Of a DNA stretch of 57,203 bases, positions 156-27,575 are shown in pieces. Each line of letters opens with the position of its first letter. Position 1 is the first letter of the stretch. The notes under the pieces were generated by a model. That model saw nothing but the letters and a program-made list of their open reading frames with translations. It ran no database searches and was not told the DNA's origin. This stretch comes from Planctomycetota bacterium (GTDB taxonomy: Bacteria > Planctomycetota > UBA11346): NCBI GenBank assembly GCA_031426335.1, contig JANPLC010000169.1, positions 1 to 57,203 on the forward strand, given 5' to 3'. Both the position numbers and the translations under genes were made by a program.

Positions 156-1304
156 TTACTTCCAGTGCTTGTCGGCAAAGTCGGCGAAGCGCATCCAATC
201 GTACTCGGTCAAATCGTGTTTGCCGGTGCGCAGGTGGTAGCCGATCTGCCCGTCGTGCAGCGGTGATTCCGGCGCAGGGAAAGTGGTAACTGGGAATCCA
301 CGCTGCTCGAACAACGCCCACACCGGCGCGGCCTCGACGCAGGCGCGGAACTCAGCCTTGGGATCCGCCCAGGCATCCTCGGTCGCACTGGCGACGTAGA
401 CCAGCCGCGGCGCGATGCTGGCGAGCAACTGGTGCTGATCGAACGGCATGTCGTTCTCGCGCTCGTTCCACTGCTTGTAGGTGGTGGTGAACCAATGCGG
501 AAAAGAGGCATTGATCTTGGCCACTCGTTCTCCCTGTTTGCCACGTGAAATCGCCGCGCCCGTGCAGCCGGAATTATTACTGATGGTCAGCGCCACGCGT
601 TCGTCCTGCGCGCCGCACCACAGCGCGGTTTTGCCGCCACGGCTGTGGCCGACCACGGCGATGCGTTTGGCATCGATGCCCGGCTGCTCGATCAGCGCAT
701 CGATCGCGCGACTCGCACCCCAGGCCCAGGCAGCGATGGTGGCCCACGCATCATCCGCGCGTGGTTTTCCCAGCGCATCGAACACCCCGTGCACGCCGTT
801 CTTGAAGTCGTCGTGTTTGTCCGGATCGATCTCGGCGTTGTCGAACGCGGCGATGGCGTAGCCGCGCGCGATCACTTGCTCTACCGGCCAGAAGGGCGAC
901 TTCTTCTCCCGCGTCGGATCGATGTTCTCTGCTGGTCGATTGCAAATCAGCAGGAAGCAGCCGACCGGTTTCTCGCGTTTGGTCGGCACGAACACCACGA
1001 CGTTCATGCCACCCACGCCACCTGGACCTTTCCAGCTGAGACGCAGTTGCCGGCGATCCGCCGTTCCACCCATCACGCCCGAGGCCGCTTCAGTTACGGT
1101 GATGGTCATGCCATCAGGATGGCCGACCGGCGCACGGCCATAGACATGATGCGCGAACAACTCGACCAGTTCAGCACGACGTGCGGGCCATTCGGCGGCG
1201 GTGGTGACCCGATTGCCGGCGCTGGTCACCAGCGGATCGGGTAGAGCAGACTCGCCAGCGAGGACGAAGCCGATGGCGGCAGACAACAGGAAGACGGTGC
1301 GCAT
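156..1304 (-). CDS. Secreted CE15-like (glucuronoyl/acetyl-xylan esterase) alpha/beta hydrolase
   Basis: G-H-S-R-G-G-K nucleophile motif, AWAWGASRAID and PFDQHQLLASIAPR motifs, late GKHD His. Signal peptide MRTVFLLSAAIGFVLA. ATG at 1304 has an AGGAG RBS, so the ORF-track start at 1334 is probably too long. Confidence 0.85.
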   Translation of the reverse strand: MRTVFLLSAAIGFVLAGESALPDPLVTSAGNRVTTAAEWPARRAELVELFAHHVYGRAPVGHPDGMTITVTEAASGVMGGTADRRQLRLSWKGPGGVGGMNVVVFVPTKREKPVGCFLLICNRPAENIDPTREKKSPFWPVEQVIARGYAIAAFDNAEIDPDKHDDFKNGVHGVFDALGKPRADDAWATIAAWAWGASRAIDALIEQPGIDAKRIAVVGHSRGGKTALWCGAQDERVALTISNNSGCTGAAISRGKQGERVAKINASFPHWFTTTYKQWNERENDMPFDQHQLLASIAPRLVYVASATEDAWADPKAEFRACVEAAPVWALFEQRGFPVTTFPAPESPLHDGQIGYHLRTGKHDLTEYDWMRFADFADKHWK

Positions 1305-1616
1305 CACGGGCTTCTCCTCAGAAATGGACGCCAACCAAGGACAATCGATACGGCGCCGTCACGCGCACGTCGCACGACACTTCGAAGCGTTGGCCAGGTA
1401 CCAGCCGATGACACACGTCACCGCATCCAATCGCTGCCGGCCACCGTCACCTGATGCGCGTTCGACCCATCAGGGCCCGCAACGCAACGTCGCGTAACGT
1501 TGCGTGTGCGCGACACCCGGGTGGTTCGGCAAGCGCGAGCAGCAGGAATCTGTAACCTGTGGGGTCTCTCCCGGATGGTTCTGTGTCTTCACATCGTCAC
1601 CGCCAGGAACCTGCCC

Positions 1617-3524
1617 ATGTCCAGCTTTCCGCTTCAGCTCGTCCTGTTAGCGCTGTGCACCCTCCCAGGACTACACGCCGCCGTCGGCGACGGCTTTTGG
1701 CGCACCGACGGCAACCAGATCAAGGACGCCGCCGGGAACGTCGTGCGTTTCAGCGGCGTGAACTGGCATGGTATGGACAGCGAGAACCTCATTCCGCACG
1801 GTTTGTGGGGCCAGGCGAATCCGGCGCGGGTGCATTCGATCGAGGACCACCTCGACGAGATGAAGACGTGCGGCTTCAACCTCATTCGGCTGGCATTCAG
1901 TTCCGAGATCTTCATCCCAGGGCAGAAACCCCGACAGACCGCGATCGATCCGACCAAGAACGCCGACCTGCTGAACAAGACCTGCCTGGAGATCCTCGAC
2001 CGCATCGTCGCTTCGGCCGGGGCGCGCGGCATCCGCATCATCCTCGACTACCATCGCCTGACTGGTGGTGGTGCGGCCGAGGACGGCCACTGGTACGACG
2101 GCGCGCATCCCGAGACCCAGTGGATCGCCAACTGGAAGGCGCTCGCCACGCGTTACAAAAACGATCCGACGGTGGTCGGCGCCGATCTGTTCAACGAAGT
2201 GCACGGCCCGGTGACGTGGAAAGCCGACAACGTCGACGTCGCCAACAACTGGCGGTGGGCGGCGAAACGCTGCGCCAACGAGATCCTCGCCATCCATCCG
2301 AACCTGCTGATCTGCGTCCAAGGCCTGCATTCGTACAATGGACAAGGCGGCTGGTGGGGCGCCGTACACCTGGGCCTGAAGGACCACCCGCTCACGCTAA
2401 ACGTCGCCAACCGCTTGGTTTACCAGGTGCATGACTACGGCCCGGTGGTGTGGGATCAGCCCTTCCATCAGGTCGCCAACGGTTTTCCCAACAGCCTGAC
2501 CGCACATTGGGACACCCAGTGGGGGTTTATCCACAACGACAACCTCGGCCCGATCTGGGTTGGCGAGTGGGGCAGCTTTTTGAATCAGGCCCAGATCGAT
2601 CATCTGGAAAACGAACAAGGCGGTGATCAGAACTACGACGATCGCGGTCAGCGGGAGATCAACGGCTGGTTCCCCAAACTGCGCGACTACATCGACGCCA
2701 AGAACCTGTCGTGGACGTGGTGGACCTGGACACCGGAATCACGCGACACCGGTGGCATCCTCAACAACGACTACAGCGTCAACACGGCCAAGGCGAATCT
2801 CCTGAATGCGGTGAAATACCCAGCCTTCGCGCCGTCGGGACCGGGTGTCGTGCCGCCGACCAACAGCGCACCGACGGCGGTGATCAACGGCACACCCGCG
2901 AGCGGCACCGCGCCGGTGACGGTCAGCTTCAATGCCAACGGTTCGAGCGATCCCGATGGCGACACCCTGACCTATGCCTGGACGTTTGGTGATGGGGGAA
3001 CAGCCACCGGACAATCGCCTTCACACACCTACACGACGAACGGTGTCTACACCGCTACCGTGACCGTGAGCGATGGTCATGCGCACCACGTGAGCGCGAC
3101 CAAAACCATCACCGTGTCTTCAACTCCGCCACCGAACAGCGCACCGACGGCGTTGATCAGCGCTACGCCAGCGATTGGAACCACACCGCTGGCGGTTGCT
3201 TTCAGCGCTGCCGGTTCCAGCGATCCCGATGGCGACACCCTGACGTACGCCTGGACCTTTGGTGATGGTGGGACCGCCACCGGCGTGGCCCCCAGCCACA
3301 CCTACGTGACGGTCGGTTCCTTCACCGTCACGCTCGTCATCAACGATGGTCACAGCCATACCGCCAATGCGACCAAGGTCATTGTGACGAACGCCAGCGG
3401 TGGCGCTCCCAGCACCGGCACACCCGCAGAAAGCGGCGGGAAATGCGGCATGGGTGGTGGAATCGCGGCGATGCTGCTGACGCTGGTTCTGTCGTTGCGC
3501 CTACGGCGGCGTTCGCTGGTATGA
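1617..3524 (+). CDS. Secreted GH5 endoglucanase-like enzyme with two PKD domains and a C-terminal membrane anchor
   Basis: GVNWHG, DLFNEVH (acid/base Glu), HDYG and WVGEWG (nucleophile Glu) motifs. Two SSDPDGDTLTYAWTFGDG PKD repeats. C-terminus GGKCGMGGG, hydrophobic helix, RLRRR. Start chosen at the signal peptide MSSFPLQLVLLALC. Confidence 0.88.
   Translation: MSSFPLQLVLLALCTLPGLHAAVGDGFWRTDGNQIKDAAGNVVRFSGVNWHGMDSENLIPHGLWGQANPARVHSIEDHLDEMKTCGFNLIRLAFSSEIFIPGQKPRQTAIDPTKNADLLNKTCLEILDRIVASAGARGIRIILDYHRLTGGGAAEDGHWYDGAHPETQWIANWKALATRYKNDPTVVGADLFNEVHGPVTWKADNVDVANNWRWAAKRCANEILAIHPNLLICVQGLHSYNGQGGWWGAVHLGLKDHPLTLNVANRLVYQVHDYGPVVWDQPFHQVANGFPNSLTAHWDTQWGFIHNDNLGPIWVGEWGSFLNQAQIDHLENEQGGDQNYDDRGQREINGWFPKLRDYIDAKNLSWTWWTWTPESRDTGGILNNDYSVNTAKANLLNAVKYPAFAPSGPGVVPPTNSAPTAVINGTPASGTAPVTVSFNANGSSDPDGDTLTYAWTFGDGGTATGQSPSHTYTTNGVYTATVTVSDGHAHHVSATKTITVSSTPPPNSAPTALISATPAIGTTPLAVAFSAAGSSDPDGDTLTYAWTFGDGGTATGVAPSHTYVTVGSFTVTLVINDGHSHTANATKVIVTNASGGAPSTGTPAESGGKCGMGGGIAAMLLTLVLSLRLRRRSLV
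2861..3390 (+). repeat. Internal duplication encoding the two PKD domains (about 2861-3120 and 3134-3390)
   Basis: Shared blocks aacagcgcaccgacggcg and agcgatcccgatggcgacaccctgac recur about 273 nt apart. Confidence 0.8.
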
Positions 3525-3544: not shown

Positions 3545-4075
3545 ATGGATGCAGCGCTTTTCGAACAGGAATGTCAGCGGCACCGACAGTCGCTGCTGGC
3601 GTACGCCTACACCTGTTCGCGCGACCTGCATCTGGCGGAAGACATTGTCCAAGAGGCGCTGCTGATCGCGCTGCGTAAACGTGAGCACTACTTTCCCGAT
3701 GCCGACTTCGGTGCGTGGCTGATCGCCATCGCGCGCAACGTGTGGTTCCGCGAGCGTGAACGGCGGAACATCCGCGAGCGGGCCAATCGTTACCTGCACG
3801 ATCACGCCACTGAACTCTTCGAAGCAACGGCCTATGAGCCGAGCGCGTGGGAGCAGGAACGCAGCGCGCTGCGCCGTTGCCTGAACAAGCTCGGCGAAGG
3901 CGACCGCGGCCTGATCACCGCGCACTTCACCACGGGCGATTCCTACCAGACCATCGCCGATCGCCTCAGCCGTACCTTGTCGTGGGTCAAGGTGCGGATG
4001 TTCCGCGTGCGTGCGGCGTTGCTCCACTGCGTCAAGGACAACCTCGCGCTCACCCACACAGACGGTGCGCCATGA
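3545..4075 (+). CDS. ECF sigma-70 factor
   Basis: Region 2 (AEDIVQEALL...WLIAIARN) and region 4 (SYQTIA...VKVRMFRVRAAL). TGA overlaps the ATG of the next gene (ATGA 4072-4075). Confidence 0.92.
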   Translation: MDAALFEQECQRHRQSLLAYAYTCSRDLHLAEDIVQEALLIALRKREHYFPDADFGAWLIAIARNVWFRERERRNIRERANRYLHDHATELFEATAYEPSAWEQERSALRRCLNKLGEGDRGLITAHFTTGDSYQTIADRLSRTLSWVKVRMFRVRAALLHCVKDNLALTHTDGAP

Positions 4076-6624
4076 TGCGCGACGATCTGGTGGCCTGGCT
4101 CGATGGCGAATGCGACGACGCCCAGGCCACGGTTATTGAACAGGCCTTGGAAGAAGATGCCGGACTGCGTGCGCACCTCGCCACGTTGGTGCGCCAACGC
4201 GTGCTGTTGGCCGAGGTGTGCGATCAGCGAGACGGCACTGGCCGCCTCGCCAATCGTCGGCCTGTCAGCAAGCAGGTCCGTGCCACCGTGCGGCTGCCAC
4301 GTCGATCGCCAGCACGCTGGTGGATTGCCGCTGCCGCCGGCATCCTGGTGGTCGTCGGTGTGCTGCTGATGCCATTCTCGCCGACCGGCTCACCACCTGG
4401 CATTGCCGTACTCACCACCAGTGGCGAGGGTGTCGTGCGGCTGGTGCGCAGCGGACGCGAGCCACTGCGGACCGGTGCTGCACTCCACGCGGGTGATCGC
4501 CTGGAAATCCCCGCGCTGACCTTCGCCGACCTGCGGCTGCGCGATGGCAGCACCATCACCATTGCCGGCGACAGCACGGTGGTGTTGCAGCCGGATCTGA
4601 GCGAACGTCTGCACCTCGAACGTGGGGCGCTCACCGCCACGGTAACGGCGCAGCCGAACGGGACGGTCTTCGCCATCGGCACCGCGCATGGACGCGCGAC
4701 GGTGCTGGGCACCCGTTTCACCCTGGCGGTGACACGCAGCGCCACGCACCTGCACGTCGACCACGGAAGCGTACGGCTGGCGGCGCATGGGCACGACGGT
4801 GTGGTGATCGCCGCGGGCGACCGCGCGAAACTTGACGGCGATGGCGTGGTCGCGCGTCTGCCAGCACCTGAACCGACACCCCTGGTCATTCCACCGCAAC
4901 GACCAACCACCCCAGCGGCAGCCAGTGTCTCCTTGTTACCAGCCGATCCCTGGGCCGGCGCCAACGTTGGTACCGACGATGGGCGCGGTGTGCCGCGTGA
5001 GATCTTCACCCTCAGCGGCCAACCGTTCGCCCAGGCGCTGCGCATCACCACGCCCAGCGACCTGATCGCCGATCCACGCCACACCGGCGAGTACGCCCTA
5101 CGCGTCCGCCTGTCGCTGACCGCACCGATCCGCAAGGGCGACGCGGTCCTGGCGCGGATGTGGCTGCGCAGTGGTGATGGCCGACCGGCGCAGACCCGGC
5201 TGGTGATTGAGGATCCCGCCAGCCACGTGCAGTCGCTCAGCGCTGCGCTGCTGGCACAGCCACAGTGGCGGCAGGTCGAACTACCGTTCCATGTGCTCGC
5301 CGATGGTGACGCCGGCACGGTGGAGGCGCAGCTGTGGCTCGGACGCCTCGGTCAGACCATCGAGGTCGGCGGACTGACGTTGACCAACCACGGCAGCACC
5401 ACGCTGCGTGCGCTGGTACCGCAGGCCACCTACGATGGCCGTGCCGCCGACGCACCATGGCGCAGCGCAGCAAACCAGCGCATCGTCCAGCATCGCCTCA
5501 GCCAACTCGAGGTGGTGATCGAGGACGCCCTGGGCCGCCCAGTTCCCGCTGCAACGGTCCAGGTGCGTGTTCGGGCACCGGCGTTGCGCTTCGGCACGGC
5601 GGTGGTCGCCGAACGGTTGCTCGGCAGCGAGCCCGACGATGCGCGCTACCGCGATGAACTGCTGGCGCGTTTCACCATCGCCGTCCCGGAGAACGCGCTC
5701 AAGTGGCCGGAGCGGGAACGAGATCCCACGTTCAGCGAACGCGCCACCACCTGGCTGAACGGACAGGGTCTGCCGGTACGCGGCCACACGCTGGTGTGGC
5801 TGCAACGCGAACATCTGCCGGCGGATCTGCGAGCCCAAGCGGATGATCCCGTGGTGATCAACAAACGGCTGGACCGCCACCTGCGTGCGACGGTGCAGGC
5901 ATTGCGTGGAAAGCTCAGCGCGTGGGATGTGGTCAACGATCCGTACAGCGCGGACCTGCTGCTGAGTGGCGATGGCCGTGAACACCTCCAGCGCTGGTTT
6001 GCCGCGGTGCAGGAACTCGATCCGGCGACGCCACGTTTCCTCAACCTCTTCGGCGTGCTCGATGACGGCGGTGCGGACCTCAGGCGTCAGGAGTTCTATG
6101 AACAGCTGATCACGGCACTGCTCGCCGCTGGCGTGCCGCTCGACGGCCTTGGCCTGCAGTGCCATCAGGATCGCAACCTCACGTCGCCGGAGCGCCTCAA
6201 CACGTTGATCGAACGTTTTGCGCGCTTCGGCCTGCCGATCCACCTCACCGAATTCGAGGTCGATATCGACGACGACGCACTGCAAGCCGACTACACCCGC
6301 GACGCGCTGACGGTATTCGCCAGCCAACCCGCTGTGCGCACGGTGCTCGCCTGGGGCTTCTGGGCCGGCGATCACCACCGTCCACAGGCGGCAATGCTGC
6401 GCCCCGATTGGTCGCTCAAAGCCAACGGCCAAGTGTGGGATGACTTGGTCCTCGGACGCTGGTCGGGCATCGCCGAGGGCCGAAGCGATCGCGAGGGCCG
6501 TTGCCGGCTGAGTACGGCGCGCGGCGAGTTGGAAGTCACCGTCACGCACAACGGCCGCCGCCTCATCCACACGCTGCGCGCCGACGCCGCCGAGGTGCCG
6601 CTGCGCCTGCGCCTGGAGCCCTGA
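4072..6624 (+). CDS. Anti-sigma factor: N-terminal anti-sigma segment, TM helix, FecR domain, CBM-like domain and GH10 domain with altered catalytic site
   Basis: LVAWLDGE N-terminus; TM WWIAAAAGILVVVGVLL; FecR motifs LRDGSTITI, LERG, TAHGRATVLGTRF, VDHGSV; GH10 motifs PENALKW, VRGHTLVW, WDVVND, GLGLQCH, HLTEF, WGF. Translationally coupled to the ECF gene. Confidence 0.85.
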   Translation: MMRDDLVAWLDGECDDAQATVIEQALEEDAGLRAHLATLVRQRVLLAEVCDQRDGTGRLANRRPVSKQVRATVRLPRRSPARWWIAAAAGILVVVGVLLMPFSPTGSPPGIAVLTTSGEGVVRLVRSGREPLRTGAALHAGDRLEIPALTFADLRLRDGSTITIAGDSTVVLQPDLSERLHLERGALTATVTAQPNGTVFAIGTAHGRATVLGTRFTLAVTRSATHLHVDHGSVRLAAHGHDGVVIAAGDRAKLDGDGVVARLPAPEPTPLVIPPQRPTTPAAASVSLLPADPWAGANVGTDDGRGVPREIFTLSGQPFAQALRITTPSDLIADPRHTGEYALRVRLSLTAPIRKGDAVLARMWLRSGDGRPAQTRLVIEDPASHVQSLSAALLAQPQWRQVELPFHVLADGDAGTVEAQLWLGRLGQTIEVGGLTLTNHGSTTLRALVPQATYDGRAADAPWRSAANQRIVQHRLSQLEVVIEDALGRPVPAATVQVRVRAPALRFGTAVVAERLLGSEPDDARYRDELLARFTIAVPENALKWPERERDPTFSERATTWLNGQGLPVRGHTLVWLQREHLPADLRAQADDPVVINKRLDRHLRATVQALRGKLSAWDVVNDPYSADLLLSGDGREHLQRWFAAVQELDPATPRFLNLFGVLDDGGADLRRQEFYEQLITALLAAGVPLDGLGLQCHQDRNLTSPERLNTLIERFARFGLPIHLTEFEVDIDDDALQADYTRDALTVFASQPAVRTVLAWGFWAGDHHRPQAAMLRPDWSLKANGQVWDDLVLGRWSGIAEGRSDREGRCRLSTARGELEVTVTHNGRRLIHTLRADAAEVPLRLRLEP

Positions 6625-6742
6625 TCCGCACCACGGTTGCTGATTGGCCGGCGCCGACGCAGCCCTTCCCGCGTCCTTGACCCGGTATTGATCCGTGGTG
6701 AATCCCGCAGGCAGACTGGCCTCCACCACCCGCGGAATTTCC

Positions 6743-7924
6743 ATGACCATCCTGGTACTCAATGCCGGCAGTTCGTCGCTCAAACTCGCGGTGCTCGATC
6801 CCGTCAGCGGGGTACGGCGATTGACCGCACTGGCGGAGCGTCTGGGTACGCCACAGGCCAGTGTGCGCGTCAATCGAGAGGACGCCGTCGCTCTGGACGA
6901 TCCGTCGTTCGCTGGGGCGTTGACGTTTCTGCAACCGCGCCTGCAGGAGCGCGACTTGCGCATCCACGGCATCGGCCACCGAGTAGTGCATGGCGGTGAA
7001 CAGTTCACCGCCGCGACGTTGATCGACGACGCGGTCTGTCGCGCGATCGATACCTGCAGCCGTTTGGCGCCACTGCACAATCCGGCGAACCTCGCCGGCA
7101 TCACCGCCACGCGCACGTTGTTCCCGGACTTGCCCCAGGTGGCGGTGTTCGACACCGCCTTTCATCAGACCATGCCGCCCCAGGCGTGGCGTTACGCCGT
7201 GCCGGAAGCGTGGTACCGTGAGCACGGCGTGCGGCGCTATGGCTTTCACGGCACCAGCCACCGCTACGTCGCTGCGCGTGCGGCGGAAATGATTGGTCGG
7301 CCATTGGCGGAACTGGCGCTGATCACCGCTCACCTCGGCAACGGTTGTAGCGCTGCGGCGATCAGCGGCGGACGTTCACTCGACACCACCATGGGGCTGA
7401 CACCGCTCGAAGGTCTGGTGATGGGCACGCGCAGTGGTGATGTGGACCCAGGGATCATCGCCCACCTGGTGCAGGCCACTGGCCAGGACGCCGTCGCCAT
7501 CACGCGCCAGCTCAACAGCGCCAGTGGTCTGCTGGGTCTGTCCGGCCTGAGCAACGACATGCGCACCATCACCACCGCGGCCGCCGACGGCCATCCCGGT
7601 GCGAATCTGGCGCTGACGGTGTTCTGCTATCGTTTGGCCAAACATATCGCCGCGTTGACGGTCGCTCTCGGGCGGCTCGATGCCTTGGTGTTCACCGGTG
7701 GCATCGGTGAACACAGTGCCGTGGTGCGCGCCCGCACGCTGGCCCTGCTCGGCTTCCTGGGACTACGTGAAGACCCCGTCGCCAACGCTAGCGATGGCGA
7801 TGCGAACGGACGTATCACCCTGCCCGGCGGCACCCAGGCGCTGGTGGTGCCGACCGACGAAGAACGTCTGATCGCGCAGGACACCGCCGACCTGATTGCC
7901 CGCCGTCGTGAAAGCACCCGCTGA
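6743..7924 (+). CDS. ackA: Acetate kinase
   Basis: ILVLNAGSSSLK, GHRVVHGG, LAPLHNP, FDTAFH, RRYGFHGTSH, HLGNG and FTGGIGE motifs. Confidence 0.97.
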   Translation: MTILVLNAGSSSLKLAVLDPVSGVRRLTALAERLGTPQASVRVNREDAVALDDPSFAGALTFLQPRLQERDLRIHGIGHRVVHGGEQFTAATLIDDAVCRAIDTCSRLAPLHNPANLAGITATRTLFPDLPQVAVFDTAFHQTMPPQAWRYAVPEAWYREHGVRRYGFHGTSHRYVAARAAEMIGRPLAELALITAHLGNGCSAAAISGGRSLDTTMGLTPLEGLVMGTRSGDVDPGIIAHLVQATGQDAVAITRQLNSASGLLGLSGLSNDMRTITTAAADGHPGANLALTVFCYRLAKHIAALTVALGRLDALVFTGGIGEHSAVVRARTLALLGFLGLREDPVANASDGDANGRITLPGGTQALVVPTDEERLIAQDTADLIARRRESTR

Positions 7925-7940
7925 AAGGGTTGAGACCACC

Positions 7941-9989
7941 ATGCCCCATACGCTGCTGATCGTTCCTACCGGCCACGGCGTCGGCCTGACCACCGCGTGT
8001 CTGGCGCTGATCCGCGCCTGCGAACGCCAAGGCGTGCCGGTGGGGTTCTGCAAACCGATCACCCAACGCAGCGATCCCACGAAAGAACGCTCGACCGCGC
8101 TAGTGCGGCTGGCCACCACCATCACTCCGCCGGAACCGATCGCCCGCGATCGCGCCGAAGCGTTGCTCAGTACCGCCGAGGATCAGCGTCTACTCGAAGA
8201 AGTCGTCGCTCGACTCGAACCAGCACTGCGTGGCGTCGAGGTGATGATCGTCGAAGGTCTCGCCGGCGGCGATGCCAGCCTGCCCGCGGAACGCATCAAC
8301 CAGGCGCTGGCGAGTTCACTCGATGCCGACGTGGTGCTGGTCGGCGATCTGCACGGCACTGGTGAGCAGGAGACCGCTGAAGCCCTGGCCATCGCCGCGC
8401 GGCCCTACGACAACGACGACAACCACCGGGTGATCGGCTGCATCCTCAACCGCGTGGCACCAGAACAGGTGGCGGGGTGCCGCCGTGCGCTTGCTGCGCG
8501 CCAGTTATCGTTGATCGGTGCACTGCCGGTGGTGCCAGAGCTCAGCCAACCGCGCATCATCGATCTGGTCCGCCGCCTGAAGCTGCACGTGCTGGTGGCC
8601 GGCGAAGACCACCGCCGCATAGCGCAGACTATCGTGCTGGCGCAGTCGCTCCCAGGAGCGCTCGCGTCGTTCAAACCCGACAGCCTGCTGATCACTCCTG
8701 GGGATCGCCACGACATCATCGTCTCGGTGGCACTCGCCGCGCACGGTGGCACGCGTTTCGCCGGGCTGCTGCTGAGCGCCAACCTGCGGCCCGATCCGGC
8801 AGTGATGGCCCTGGTGACGCCCGCTACGGGCATCCGCCTGCCGGTGTTGTTGTCCGCCAACAACACCTACGACACCGCCACCGCCGTCCACCAGATGGAC
8901 CGCGAGGTCGCCTCGGACGACCGCGAACGGGCCGAGCTGGCGATGGGTTTGGCTGATCACCTGGATCCCGCCTGGGTGACCACGTTGGTCGCCTCCACCC
9001 GCGAGCACCGCCTGAGTCCGCCGGCCTTCCGCCACCGCCTGATGGAACGCGCGCGTCTCGCCAACCGCCGCATCGTCCTGCCCGAAGGCGAGGAACCGCG
9101 CACCATCCGCGCCGCCATCCAGTGCCAGGAACGCGGCATCGCACGCTGCGTGCTGCTGGCCCGTCCCGAGGTCTTGTCGGCGCAGGTGCGCCAACTCGGC
9201 GTGACGCTGCCGCCCGGGTTGGAAGTCATCGATCCGACGACCATCGCCGAACGCTACGTCGCGCCGCTGGTCGAGCTGCGCAAGGCCAAGGGCATGACCG
9301 AGCCGCGCGCGCGCGAGGAACTCTCCGACAGCATCGTGGTCGGCACCATGATGCTCAAACTCGGTGAGGTCGACGGACTGGTCAGCGGCGCGGTGCACAC
9401 CACCGCGCACACCATCCGCCCGGCGTTGCAGCTGATCAAGACCGCCGAGGGCTCGTCGCTGGTGTCATCGATCTTCTTCATGTGCTTGCCGGAGCAGGTG
9501 GTGGTCTATGGCGATTGCGCGGTGAATCCCGACCCCACCGCCGAACAACTGGCCGACATCGCCCTGCAGAGCGCCGACAGCGCGCGCGCCTTCGGCATCG
9601 AACCGCGCGTGGCGATGATCAGCTATTCCACCGGCGCGAGCGGCAGCGGCAGCGATGTCGACAAAGTGCGCGAAGCCACGCGTCTAGCGCGTGAACGCCG
9701 CCCTGGGCTCGCCATCGATGGCCCGCTGCAATACGACGCCGCGGCCATCGCCAGCGTCGCGCGCACCAAGCTGCCCGATAGCACGGTCGCCGGCCACGCC
9801 AACGTCTTTATCTTTCCCGACCTCAACACCGGCAACACCACCTACAAAGCCGTGCAACGCAGCGCGCAGGTGGTGAGCATCGGCCCGATGCTGCAAGGGT
9901 TGGCCAAACCGGTAAACGACCTCAGCCGCGGCGCCCTGGTGGAGGACATCGTCTACACCATCGCACTGACGGCGATCCAGGCGGGGTGA
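7941..9989 (+). CDS. pta: Phosphate acetyltransferase, long form (BioD-like, DRTGG and PTA domains)
   Basis: GVGLT N-terminal motif, ITPGDR, IVLPEGEEPRT, GLVSGAVHTTA, DCAVNP, GPLQYDAA, FPDLNTGNTTYKAVQR, PVNDLSRG. Follows ackA. Confidence 0.97.
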   Translation: MPHTLLIVPTGHGVGLTTACLALIRACERQGVPVGFCKPITQRSDPTKERSTALVRLATTITPPEPIARDRAEALLSTAEDQRLLEEVVARLEPALRGVEVMIVEGLAGGDASLPAERINQALASSLDADVVLVGDLHGTGEQETAEALAIAARPYDNDDNHRVIGCILNRVAPEQVAGCRRALAARQLSLIGALPVVPELSQPRIIDLVRRLKLHVLVAGEDHRRIAQTIVLAQSLPGALASFKPDSLLITPGDRHDIIVSVALAAHGGTRFAGLLLSANLRPDPAVMALVTPATGIRLPVLLSANNTYDTATAVHQMDREVASDDRERAELAMGLADHLDPAWVTTLVASTREHRLSPPAFRHRLMERARLANRRIVLPEGEEPRTIRAAIQCQERGIARCVLLARPEVLSAQVRQLGVTLPPGLEVIDPTTIAERYVAPLVELRKAKGMTEPRAREELSDSIVVGTMMLKLGEVDGLVSGAVHTTAHTIRPALQLIKTAEGSSLVSSIFFMCLPEQVVVYGDCAVNPDPTAEQLADIALQSADSARAFGIEPRVAMISYSTGASGSGSDVDKVREATRLARERRPGLAIDGPLQYDAAAIASVARTKLPDSTVAGHANVFIFPDLNTGNTTYKAVQRSAQVVSIGPMLQGLAKPVNDLSRGALVEDIVYTIALTAIQAG

Positions 9990-25578: not shown

Positions 25579-27045
25579 TCACCAACTGGTCAGCGGAAAG
25601 CGGTTGGCACTAGCGAGGGCACGCACGCGCGCTGCGAGCGCCGCATCATCAAGCACGCCGGCGTGCAGTTCGATCGCGATGATGTCGCCTTCCAACGCCC
25701 GCCCGCTGGGCGAGCCACCAAAAGTCAGTTGTGGTGCGCTGATGCCGGTCGGCACCGCCGCCGCCACGCGTTTACCCGCGCCAGCTCCGGTGTTGAGCAC
25801 CACGCCACCGTCGGCCTGCCAACGACAGGCGACCGACCAATATTTCCCTTCCGGCACCTCGACCCGCACGCGTTCGCTGCCATCAACCAGCGCGGCGATG
25901 GCACCTGGGCTGAGGTCGTGGCGCACCAACGCCACGCGTTCGCGGCCGCCATCGTTCAAGGCCACCACCCGCTGATCCCGCCCAGGATTGATCGGGATAA
26001 CCAGCGCGATGAGAGTCAGCCCATGCTGGGCAGCGAAGGTCTGGACTGACGTCGCCAAGCGCTGATCACGCCCGTTGAAACACAGGCCATACCCTTTGCC
26101 CAGGGGACGCAGGATCGGTTGCTGACTGCCGCTGGGTGGTTGCGCCAGCAGGTTGCCATTGCCGGCCCAGCCATTGAGCGGTTGTCCATCGGAGGTGGTG
26201 CCAACAGCCGATGACGCGCTGAAGCTGGCGATCAGCGTGGCCGGCGGCGGGGCGACCTCGACGCGCGCGTGGCTGCCGGCAGTGACCAGGCGCTCGCCGT
26301 CCTTGCTCACCAGTCTGACCGTACCGCTACTGACCGTCAGTTCGCTGCCGCTGCTGTCGTGCGCGACGCGGAAGGCGGTGCCGACCACCACCGATTCGGC
26401 GAGTGGTGTCTGCACTGCGAGCGGTGCCGTCGGATCCTGCGGTTTGGCCGACACGCCGACCGCGCCGTCGTCGAGGCGAAGCAACACGCCGGCACCTCCA
26501 CCAGCACGGAGCGTCGCGTTGCTGGTCAAGCTCAGGCGGCTGTCGGCGTCGAGCCACAACCGCGTGCCGTCGGCAAGGCGCACCTGCGCTGGTCCGCCGC
26601 GCAATTCAGCACCAGAAACCAACGTCGCTCCCACTCTCAGCGCTTGGCCATCAGCGGACGACAACGCTGTGGCGCTCTCGACGGTGGCGAAGGCCGTGGT
26701 GCTGGACGATGGTCCCATGACCCCGGCGACCACCGCCACCAGTAACAACGCCGCCGCACCGGCGATCCACGGCGTGAACGACACACGCCGCACGCGGCGA
26801 CGACGCACGGTGGTGCGGCGGAGAGTGGAGGTCGATGAACCACGGCGTTCTGGCGCCCGTTGCGGTGCGGCCTGGGTCGCCGCGGTGTGCAGCAGGCGTT
26901 CGCAGCGGATGACCTGCTCGACCACCGCACGACACCCAGGACAGCCCGGCAGGTGCGCGATGAACGCGCCGGCCTCTGCCGCTGGCACCTCGGGATCGAG
27001 CATGCCGCCGACGCGCTCGCGCCAGGTGACGCACGGTTCGCTCAT
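25579..27045 (-). CDS. Anti-sigma factor: zinc-binding HxxxCxxC, TM helix, FecR domain and C-terminal LamG/ConA-like domain
   Basis: HLPGCPGC; TM WIAGAAALLLVAVVAGVM; LADGTRLWL, TPLAESVVVGTAF, VSSGTV; C-terminal FNG and GDIIAIELHAGVLDD. ATGA overlap with the ECF gene. Confidence 0.83.
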   Translation of the reverse strand: MSEPCVTWRERVGGMLDPEVPAAEAGAFIAHLPGCPGCRAVVEQVIRCERLLHTAATQAAPQRAPERRGSSTSTLRRTTVRRRRVRRVSFTPWIAGAAALLLVAVVAGVMGPSSSTTAFATVESATALSSADGQALRVGATLVSGAELRGGPAQVRLADGTRLWLDADSRLSLTSNATLRAGGGAGVLLRLDDGAVGVSAKPQDPTAPLAVQTPLAESVVVGTAFRVAHDSSGSELTVSSGTVRLVSKDGERLVTAGSHARVEVAPPPATLIASFSASSAVGTTSDGQPLNGWAGNGNLLAQPPSGSQQPILRPLGKGYGLCFNGRDQRLATSVQTFAAQHGLTLIALVIPINPGRDQRVVALNDGGRERVALVRHDLSPGAIAALVDGSERVRVEVPEGKYWSVACRWQADGGVVLNTGAGAGKRVAAAVPTGISAPQLTFGGSPSGRALEGDIIAIELHAGVLDDAALAARVRALASANRFPLTSW

Positions 27046-27575
27046 GGCGCACGCTCCGCATCCTGGGTCGCCAAGCGGCCACCCAGGCAACGGGCCAGCG
27101 CGTTGCGGCCTCGCATCAACGCCATCCGCACCCCATCCGCGGACATACTCAGACGTTCACCGATTTGACTGGCGTTGAGGCCCTCCTGGTAGCGCAGGTC
27201 GAGCATCTGCCGCAACCGCTCGCCCAGGCCAGCCATGCAGGCTTTGAGTGCGGCCTGTTCTTGCGCGTGATCCTCCGGCTCGACCTGGTCCCAACTCAAA
27301 GCGACGTATTCCTCCACCGCCTGATGCCGCGGGTAACGGCGGCGATGACGGCTGGCCAGATGGCGCGCGATGCCACGCAGGTAGGCGCCGGGATTGTCAC
27401 CGCGCAGCAACACGCCTGGGCTGCGTAGGACCTCCAGGCACACATCCTGCGCCACGTCGTCGGCATCCGCCGGCGGCAGCAGGTGACGCAGAAAGGCACG
27501 CAGCCGCGGCAGCTCCGCGTCGAGGGCGGCGCGGACCAGGGTGATGTCGTCACGATCGAAAGACGCCGTGGCCAT
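27042..27575 (-). CDS. ECF sigma-70 factor
   Basis: ADDVAQDV...YLRGIARH (region 2); LDLRYQEGL...IGERL...VRMALMRGR (region 4). Confidence 0.9.
   Translation of the reverse strand: MATASFDRDDITLVRAALDAELPRLRAFLRHLLPPADADDVAQDVCLEVLRSPGVLLRGDNPGAYLRGIARHLASRHRRRYPRHQAVEEYVALSWDQVEPEDHAQEQAALKACMAGLGERLRQMLDLRYQEGLNASQIGERLSMSADGVRMALMRGRNALARCLGGRLATQDAERAP

Follow-up and report, generated by a model that had tools for sequence, protein, structure and literature searches.

Introduction

In the polysaccharide utilization loci of Bacteroidota, FecR-type anti-sigma factors control glycan-degrading genes and receive their signal through a SusC-like TonB-dependent transducer. The gene pair considered here comes from a member (lineage UBA11346) of the Planctomycetota, a phylum known for polysaccharide degradation, and occupies positions 3545–6624 of contig JANPLC010000169.1 (assembly GCA_031426335.1), of which the whole stretch analyzed, positions 1–57,203, is referred to as the window. 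It encodes a sigma factor of the extracytoplasmic function (ECF) type and an anti-sigma factor that, unlike its counterparts in Bacteroidota, itself carries the carbohydrate-recognition module. The feature is genuine and has good support: a FecR-scaffold anti-sigma factor whose sensor derives from glycoside hydrolase family 10 (GH10), is catalytically altered throughout the clade, and is encoded in a conserved plant-wall operon. The whole reading, that of a periplasmic glycan-sensing sigma/anti-sigma pair controlling an operon headed by a family 5 glycoside hydrolase (GH5), is given a probability of about 0.65.

The scaffold of the anti-sigma factor is that of the FecR/FecI/FecA and PupR/PupI/PupB systems. 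The periplasmic domain of PupR is described as a juxtamembrane (CJM) subdomain (residues 110–238) followed by an STN subdomain (residues 250–324), both of which are needed to bind the signaling domain of PupB (PMC7186176); for Escherichia coli FecR, the self-cleavage site is placed at Gly181-Thr182 (PMC8144685). The protein of the window shares with FecR and PupR a layout of a probable anti-sigma domain, a single transmembrane helix, a periplasmic FecR (CJM) domain, and an ECF partner, together with a Gly-Thr pair at about the position of FecR Gly181-Thr182 and a genome that offers an RseP-type protease. It differs in having no STN or FecR_C domain, in the lack of a TonB-dependent transducer in the window or among the genes detected in the genome, in its length (850 residues as compared with the usual ∼325), and in its signal, which is probably a glycan rather than an iron carrier.

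A functional parallel is provided by SigI6/RsgI6 of Clostridium thermocellum. The GH10 end of RsgI6 has very low activity and binds both xylan and Avicel, and the signal is passed on by autocleavage in the juxtamembrane region and then by RseP (PMC4711584, PMC10328401). Both anti-sigma factors are single-pass proteins with a GH10 domain at the outer end, predicted here to serve glycan recognition; each has, between membrane and sensor, a juxtamembrane domain in which a self-cleavage site is known (RsgI6) or possible (here), and both operons are autoregulated with a plant-wall enzyme as output, as judged here from the genes. However, the protein families are unrelated, and the sigma factor here is of the ECF type, not SigI. 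The juxtamembrane part is a FecR/CJM domain with Gly-Thr, as opposed to the RsgI periplasmic domain with Asn-Pro, and the present protein has an additional CBM4-like domain (CBM, carbohydrate-binding module) and a clade-wide Asp as acid/base. Because the cell is diderm, the sensor would be located in the periplasm, unlike that of RsgI6. The two systems have no homologous regulatory part in common, and their similarity is therefore ascribed to convergence.

The barrel itself is best compared with XynA of Bacillus sp. KW1 (7D88, 7D89, 9RHV). In its description (PMC13444322), Glu280 is the nucleophile labeled by a cyclophellitol probe, and Glu96, Asn97, Lys100, and Trp314 contact the ligand (9RHV). 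Over residues 459–846 the two proteins share an N-terminal extension, the barrel, and a C-terminal sandwich, and the counterparts of all five of these residues are retained. XynA, in contrast, is a free, active enzyme with Glu182, whereas the protein described here has Asp at that position, Leu in the N-D/E-Y motif, and His in place of a Trp, and its barrel is tethered to an anti-sigma factor and accompanied by a CBM4-like domain.

The Sigma Factor and the Architecture of the Anti-sigma Factor

The gene pair and the parts of the anti-sigma factor are located as follows.

3545–4075, plus strand: ECF sigma factor gene, 176 residues; Pfam matches to Sigma70_r2 and Sigma70_r4_2 only
4072–6624, plus strand: anti-sigma factor gene, 850 residues, single-pass
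4072–4230, plus strand: probable cytoplasmic anti-sigma domain, residues 1–53, three helices (zf-HC2 score, AlphaFold helices)
4315–4371, plus strand: single transmembrane helix, residues 82–100, with RLPRRSPAR just before it (sequence; AlphaFold helix 82–98)
4399–4863, plus strand: periplasmic FecR domain, all-beta, residues 110–264 (Pfam FecR, PF04773, E = 1.4e-13)
4924–5421, plus strand: CBM4/CBM22-like beta-sandwich, residues 285–450 (domain model and Foldseek)
5584–6411, plus strand: GH10 (beta/alpha)8 barrel, residues 505–780 (Glyco_hydro_10, PF00331, E = 2.7e-32)
6412–6624, plus strand: C-terminal small beta-sandwich, residues 781–850, and stop codon (alignment with the C terminus of XynA, 7d88)

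The sigma factor has the features of the ECF group, namely sigma-70 regions 2 and 4 only, a length within about 170–200 residues, and a co-encoded anti-sigma factor. Its Pfam match to Sigma70_r2 has an E-value of 2.6e-12, and that to Sigma70_r4_2, at 25.5 bits, is slightly below the cut-off of 25.7; of the NCBIfam models, TIGR02989 (the Rhodopirellula/Verrucomicrobium family) is closest, with 109 bits, which is under its cut-off, and TIGR02937 scores 61.8 bits against a cut-off of 42.9. The orthologous sigma factors of three related loci (L001, L002, and L045) are 82–88% identical to it. The original prediction, an ECF sigma factor beside a FecR-type anti-sigma factor with a GH10 domain, is borne out by the Pfam matches to Sigma70_r2, FecR, and Glyco_hydro_10. 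The start codon of the anti-sigma gene, ATG 4072, overlaps the stop codon of the sigma gene as ATGA. An alternative start at GTG 3847, which gives a longer open reading frame, was dropped because 10 database homologs begin at a matching M-M/R-x-D-D-L, and ATG 4072 is almost certainly the true start.

An AlphaFold model of the anti-sigma factor, built on 21 sequences with a mean pLDDT of 83.6, gives together with Pfam the order cytoplasmic helices, disordered stretch, transmembrane helix, FecR domain, proline-rich linker, sandwich, helix and hairpin, barrel, and sandwich, the strands of the last lying at residues 801–847. The cytoplasmic domain scores 21.5 bits with zf-HC2, as compared with a cut-off of 22.2, whereas the distant homolog P0061 scores 23.4 bits and is above it. 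The Pfam scan of the anti-sigma factor listed only GH10, FecR, and zf-HC2, with no match to RsgI_N. A predicted complex of the sigma factor with the anti-sigma factor had a score of 0.60 (best control, 0.01), which lends weak support to the pairing; the runs shared at least 87% of their contacts, and the pLDDT of the partner did not fall below 78. In the benchmark of this score, 58 of 80 solved complexes and 2 of 110 mismatched pairs passed the mark; those that passed with 0.60 or less comprised just 7 of the 80 solved complexes and both of the mismatched pairs.

The original prediction of a CBM-like domain holds for the fold and fails for the profile. A separate model of residues 285–450, made from 64 sequences (pLDDT 92.8), matched the CBM4 of CelK best in Foldseek (3p6b, E = 1.5e-8, TM-score 0.70), with further matches to Rhodothermus CBM4-2 (1k42), CBM22-1 of Xyn10C (4xuo), and 2w5f. 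The beta-jelly-roll fold of the CBM4 and CBM22 families is therefore present, but membership by sequence is not, since Pfam gave no match to these residues even at E ≤ 10, CBM_4_9 included.

The GH10 Barrel and Its Catalytic Residues

The closest solved structure to the anti-sigma factor's C-terminal part is XynA, 7d88 (HMMER, E = 4e-39, residues 459–846). In Foldseek the barrel matches 7d88 and 7d89 with E-values of 6e-25 and 4.4e-26 and TM-scores on the target of 0.86–0.87, and the probability is 1.00 for these and for many further GH10 structures. The motifs reported previously all lie where stated, and their positions, with that of a further altered residue, His769, are as follows.

5689–5706, plus strand: ENALKW, substrate motif
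5779–5799, plus strand: RGHTLVW, substrate motif
5923–5940, plus strand: WDVVND, acid/base motif, with the Asp623 codon GAT at 5938–5940
6043–6051, plus strand: NLF, altered N-D/E-Y motif, with Leu659 at 6046–6048
6151–6165, plus strand: GLQCH, substrate motif
6247–6255, plus strand: TEF, nucleophile motif, with the Glu727 codon GAA at 6250–6252
6376–6378, plus strand: His769, replacing a Trp eight residues past the WG motif

In the HMMER alignment with 7d88, Asp623 lies under the Glu of WDVNNE (XynA Glu182) and Glu727 under that of TEY (Glu280). These are precisely the two positions at which 7d89, titled "inactivated double mutant (E182AE280A)," differs from 7d88. Counted along the same alignment, the ligand-contacting Glu96, Asn97, Lys100, and Trp314 of XynA correspond to Glu540, Asn541, Lys544, and Trp761. 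Thus, of the characteristics of the GH10 family, the fold and the nucleophilic Glu on strand 7 are present, but the acid/base Glu on strand 4 is not. The retained pair of carboxylates goes beyond the needs of a pure lectin and leaves room for a slow-enzyme or covalent-trap mode of action.

Conservation, Origin, and Distribution

A word-indexed search found ten full-length FecR+GH10 proteins that are 44–93% identical to the anti-sigma factor and, where named, come from Planctomycetota. The set was extended by an exhaustive HMMER search against 1.84 billion representatives, which yielded a full-length fusion with 36% identity, P0061 (Pfam: FecR, GH10, zf-HC2), and a 371-residue fragment, P0031. 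The part homologous to residues 283–850 was aligned for 170 proteins, comprising the query and all matching homologs apart from P0016, which has no GH10 part; 13 of the rows make up the fusion set, with P0031 counted among them (its N terminus is unknown), and the other rows number 157.

The replacement of the acid/base Glu by Asp, which had been noticed in the single protein, is a property of the whole group: Asp is found in 13 of 13 fusion rows and Glu in 155 of the 157 others, the two remaining rows being P0040, with His, and the poorly aligned P0028; none of the 157 has Asp. The reading of the N-D/E-Y motif as NLF likewise extends to the clade, with Leu or Cys at position 659 in all 13 fusions and Asp or Glu in 156 of 157 others. 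Position 769 is His, Glu, or Asp in the 13 fusions and Trp in 132 of the 157 other rows. The nucleophile, Glu727, is invariant (170 of 170 rows), and the equivalents of the ligand contacts are largely kept in the fusions (Glu540 in 12 of 13, Asn541 in 11, and both Lys544 and Trp761 in 13). A simple pattern count on 85 loci, over which the aligned count takes precedence, gave ND in 3 full-length fusions and NE in 76 loci, the motif being missed or mis-hit in 6. A private mutation or a sequencing error is ruled out by the GAT codon in all four DNA copies and the Asp in all 13 members of the clade.

In a FastTree phylogeny of 169 rows (P0028 was dropped, and the trait columns, 3 of 585, were kept), the 13 fusion rows form one clade with SH-like support of 99, and it follows that there was one fusion event and that the Asp has been kept ever since. 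Among nine core-clade homologs of less than 90% identity (P0008–P0015), identities are 75–86% in the GH10 domain, 64–83% in the CBM-like domain, and 54–77% in the FecR domain; the barrel and the CBM-like domain are thus the best conserved parts of the anti-sigma factor within the clade. In a survey of the order that covered 48 species-representative genomes, all belonging to a single family and with assemblies 61–96% complete, the full-length fusion occurred in 3 of 11 genomes of the genus of the window and in none of the 37 others, which have enzyme-type relatives or none. One enzyme-type relative, P0034 (1117 residues), has its GH10 domain fused to a BcsG domain (PF11658, E = 2.8e-119); BcsG is a phosphoethanolamine transferase of cellulose biosynthesis.

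The FecR Domain and the Apparent Absence of a Transducer

The only Protein Data Bank sequence match of residues 100–270 is PupR (6ovk_R, chain residues 21–134 of 219, E = 8.8e-6), which makes the FecR domain of the anti-sigma factor the counterpart of the PupR CJM subdomain. It is followed in the model by a disordered linker (residues 266–282) and then by the CBM-like sandwich, and Pfam finds no match to STN or FecR_C (PF07660, PF16344) in the anti-sigma factor. As far as sequence comparison can tell, only the CJM-like part is present and the transducer-docking subdomain is missing. Within the domain, Gly213-Thr214 (in VLGTRF; 4708–4713) is invariant in 11 of 11 fusions, and all 28 of the other FecR proteins of the genome that were compared have Gly-Thr in the matching columns. 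The pair falls at about positions 176–181 of the profile NF007296, as estimated from the match end points, and so appears to lie at about the position of E. coli FecR Gly181-Thr182, making it a candidate self-cleavage site. PupR has no Gly-Thr at the aligned place. A gene for an RseP-like M50 protease is present in the genome.

The genome of the window is a 5.68-Mb assembly of 494 contigs that is 85% complete. It contains 36 FecR matches and 8 matches to TonB receptor barrels (PF00593). The statement that the window has no TonB-dependent receptor gene stands, as all eight of the latter are on contigs other than that of the window (C169). No TonB-dependent transducer was detected in the 85%-complete genome, its two STN matches being a secretin and a TPR protein, and the earlier suggestion that the input does not depend on such a transducer is strengthened by this and by the absence of STN and FecR_C from the anti-sigma factor.

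FecR_C and STN are also absent from all of the 28 other FecR proteins that were scanned (the remaining matches are one protein truncated at the edge of its contig and six that have no locus). The C-terminal ends recognized among these 28 are Laminin_G_3 (5), PA14 (5), CBM96 (2), 3-keto-disaccharide hydrolase (2), a beta-helix (1), and GH5 (1), showing the FecR scaffold to be a general carrier of carbohydrate-type modules in this organism; the GH10 fusion is the longest FecR protein of the genome. The protein with the GH5 end is a second anti-sigma factor of the genome that terminates in a glycosidase domain (683 residues; locus L009, 859–2907, plus strand, corresponding to about 2225–4273 of contig C241 of the genome, G000). 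It combines FecR with a partial GH5 (Cellulase) match covering profile positions 21–194 of 272, and a search of Protein Data Bank sequences gave no match. The window itself encodes a second FecR-type anti-sigma factor (25582–27090, minus strand, 503 residues; FecR E = 1.1e-13, zf-HC2 21.6 bits), in which no recognized C-terminal domain was found.

The Operon, Its Neighbors, and a Candidate Promoter

Upstream of the sigma gene are the following features.

156–1334, minus strand: gene for a glucuronoyl esterase of the CE15 (carbohydrate esterase family 15) type, divergent, start uncertain (Pfam GCE_fung, E = 2.2e-35)
1551–1577, plus strand: candidate ECF-type promoter, TGTAACCT-N14-CGGATG, about 40 nucleotides before the GH5 ATG
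1617–3524, plus strand: GH5 endoglucanase-like gene (Pfam Cellulase, E = 1.4e-39; PKD_4, E = 5.9e-44)

The order CE15, divergent GH5, sigma, anti-sigma recurs at each of the four orthologous loci, namely L001, L002, L045, and the window, with CE15 orthologs of 76–88% identity in the same position in the first three. At the 81 loci where the secreted enzyme form alone is encoded, none of the CE15, GH5, and sigma neighbors occurs. The GH5 gene, whose start ATG at 1617 is kept in the four loci, ends 20 nucleotides before the sigma gene. Its product carries a signal peptide and two PKD domains and ends in a tail of the sorting or anchor type; in the Protein Data Bank it is most similar to CelE2 (8fc0, E = 8e-83) and to endocellulase E1 (1ece, E = 1.6e-79).

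The tail (about 3400–3524 of the window) consists of GGKCGMGGG, a hydrophobic stretch, and RLRRRSLV, with similar tails in the L001 and L002 orthologs, and NCBIfam aligns it with the C terminus of myxosortase- and rhombosortase-dependent proteases, which suggests that it is a sorting or anchoring signal. The orthologs in L001 (4808–7432) and L002 (5241–7439) have one PKD domain and a PA14 domain, whereas the copy in the window has two PKD domains and no PA14. The genes downstream of the anti-sigma gene vary, being ackA-pta in the window and different genes in relatives. The pair in the window (6695–9989, plus strand) encodes an acetate kinase (Pfam, E = 1.2e-136) and a long phosphate acetyltransferase (AAA_26, DRTGG, and PTA_PTB); the two frames overlap at 7896–7924, and the pair is not kept beside the module in relatives.

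In promoters of the ECF pattern, as for Bacillus SigX and SigW, a −35 element with AAC is separated by about 16 nucleotides from a −10 element with CG. The candidate promoter block is invariant in the four orthologous loci, although the CE15-GH5 spacer that flanks it has diverged, and its motif has 1 match in the window as compared with 0.01 expected. In the genome of the window and in two related genomes, G001 and G002, the strict motif and spacing occur only at the GH5 promoter, and matches with other spacings are no more common than those of a reversed-pattern control. A match in the unrelated locus L063 was taken as due to chance, as it lies inside apparent coding sequence. The heptamer TGTAACC occurs 168 times in the genome as compared with about 407 occurrences expected from base composition; because it is not enriched, it cannot be used alone. 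Neither sigma-70-type promoters nor plus strand terminators were found between 1200 and 6900, which fits, weakly, a single transcription unit. The synteny, the promoter footprint, and the lack of an internal promoter or terminator lead us to regard the three genes, GH5, sigma, and anti-sigma, as a single autoregulated operon, of which GH5 is likely to be both the first gene and the regulated output.

Several repeated elements were observed in and around this region. A near-perfect inverted repeat, CGCAACGTCGCGTAACGTTGCG (1483–1504, plus strand), lies in the CE15-GH5 spacer about 50 nucleotides upstream of the promoter footprint and could be the operator of another regulator. The same spacer in L001 has a long run of CCGAACG/CCGAATG-type tandem repeats (about 5030–5200) that is absent from the window and L002. 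A near-identical element, TCTGTAACCTGTGGCCTGTAG, which contains the TGTAACCT word of the footprint, occurs three times in the genome, at C83:8796 (plus strand), C341:2169 (minus strand), and C405:3338 (minus strand); C83 and C405 also carry FecR genes.

Proposed Mechanism and Its Alternatives

We infer that the docking end of a FecR-type regulator has been replaced by a module from a secreted enzyme, composed of the CBM4-like domain, the GH10 barrel, and the C-terminal sandwich, and that this module binds a beta-1,4-linked plant-wall glycan in the periplasm with little turnover. The ligand would be xylan or xylo-oligosaccharides, possibly cello-oligosaccharides. [quoted passage not shown] The original prediction had the barrel release the sigma factor directly, but in view of the conserved Gly-Thr in the FecR domain and the gene for an RseP-like protease, this is less likely than regulated proteolysis.

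It should be recognized that several observations weigh against this mechanism. The modeled sigma/anti-sigma complex is weak evidence of interaction, and its passing score may reflect a resemblance to solved sigma/anti-sigma complexes. The promoter is a footprint only, and since the strict motif occurs nowhere else in the three genomes, it has no backing from a wider regulon. All four DNA copies have GAT as the Asp codon, and with no synonymous variation among them no selection can be read at this codon. The two most distant fusions, P0017 and P0061, have drifted at Asn541, Asn658, Gln696 or His698, and Thr726; taken with the high conservation of the barrel and the CBM-like domain, this drift of canonical residues also points to a constraint that is not that of ordinary catalysis. 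The barrel is the only GH10 match in the genome (an 85%-complete assembly), which would fit an enzymatic role, and, from the residues present, Asp623 being a carboxylate and the nucleophile being intact, real though slow hydrolysis is possible. Finally, the conserved output, GH5, resembles endoglucanases rather than xylanases, so that xylan is not secured as the ligand; because the GH5 is E1-like, cello-oligosaccharides or mixed glycans are possible.

These points bear on two alternatives in particular. The architecture and mechanism could be as proposed but the ligand a glucan (cello-oligosaccharides, cellulose chains, mixed-linkage glucan, or xyloglucan), with the cleft changes having re-tuned the −1/+1 region. 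Given the endoglucanase-like output and the Trp to His change, this is a serious alternative, if not a probable one: the gene behind the conserved promoter is a GH5 of the E1/CelE2 type, the Trp to His change at position 769 is confined to fusions, and RsgI6-GH10 is described as binding Avicel besides xylan (PMC4711584, PMC10328401). It has to be set against the facts that GH10 is a xylanase family, that XynA's contacts to the xylobiosyl/arabinofuranosyl unit are retained, and that the conserved divergent neighbor is a CE15 glucuronoyl esterase, an enzyme related to glucuronoxylan. Trp281 of Cellulomonas fimi Cex, the presumed equivalent of the replaced Trp, reportedly hinders the C5 hydroxymethyl group of glucosides, a point in favor of a glucan; against it, the equivalence of His769 with Trp281 is assumed from motif spacing. 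The other alternative is that the barrel is a working, membrane-tethered periplasmic xylanase in which the Asp slows the enzyme or shifts its pH optimum, the anti-sigma fusion adds a regulatory layer to catalysis, and product formation, as opposed to binding alone, is the signal. Glu727 and the carboxylate of Asp623 are kept in 13 of 13 fusions, where Ala, Gln, or Ser would be open to a pure binding module; no other part of the anti-sigma factor is as well conserved as the barrel, which is also the only GH10 found in the genome; and RsgI6-GH10 likewise keeps very low activity (PMC4711584). Nevertheless, this is unlikely, because 155 of 157 related enzymes have Glu at the acid/base position and none has Asp, two more cleft positions have changed along with Asp623, and the distant fusions have lost further residues of the catalytic center (H698R and T726G in P0061). 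Work on the E172D variant of Bacillus circulans xylanase by Lawson et al. in 1997 is reported to show that an acid/base shorter by one methylene costs a retaining xylanase orders of magnitude on natural substrates, which also counts against a working enzyme.

A mechanism-based trap would give a different reason for the retention of Asp: Glu727 would attack the glycan, and the shortened acid/base would be unable to promote deglycosylation, so that the anti-sigma factor would be tethered to its ligand covalently or for a long time. The tether or the pull of the polymer would then part the self-cleaved halves of the FecR domain at Gly213-Thr214 and expose the stub to RseP; such a pulling apart of the halves of a self-cleaved domain has been proposed for RsgI and for adhesion G protein-coupled receptors. 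In a broader form of the trap, the 36 FecR proteins of the genome would be a family of transducer-free, modular periplasmic glycan sensors in which altered glycosidase domains (GH10 here, GH5 on C241) are one class of input. We regard the trap, in either form, as speculative and quite improbable. Less probable still, and barely credible, is that the GH10 domain is a bulky, stable cap that shields FecR from periplasmic proteases, with envelope stress or an unidentified protein partner as the signal. The PupR periplasmic domain is indeed reported to be unstable without its partner (PMC7186176), but a cap does not sit well with the strong constraint on the CBM-fold domain and the ligand-contact residues, with plant-wall enzymes as neighbors in 4 of 4 loci, or with the other carbohydrate-binding modules on sister anti-sigma factors of the genome. 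The reading of the GH10 barrel as a glycan sensor of low activity, coupled to proteolysis, is therefore preferred.

Significance

No description of a FecR-glycosidase fusion was found in the literature searched, a coverage that excludes most subscription journals. To our knowledge, enzyme-derived sensor domains on glycan-sensing anti-sigma factors have been studied experimentally so far only in the cellulosome-forming Firmicutes, on RsgI proteins; the present system would have arrived at that solution independently, starting from the FecR scaffold of diderm bacteria. It offers a concrete case of a cell-surface-signaling regulator turning into a direct sensor, in which the docking part has been exchanged for a CBM and a GH10 barrel, and it traces a route from enzyme to receptor that consists of one fusion followed by the fixation of a Glu to Asp replacement and two cleft changes, down to 36% identity. 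Public databases name these fusions "endo-1,4-beta-xylanase," and as a result xylanases are over-counted in Planctomycetota genomes and the regulator is hidden. With some 35 further FecR-type proteins in this genome, many of them with carbohydrate-binding ends, the finding may open up a large, unstudied sensory repertoire.

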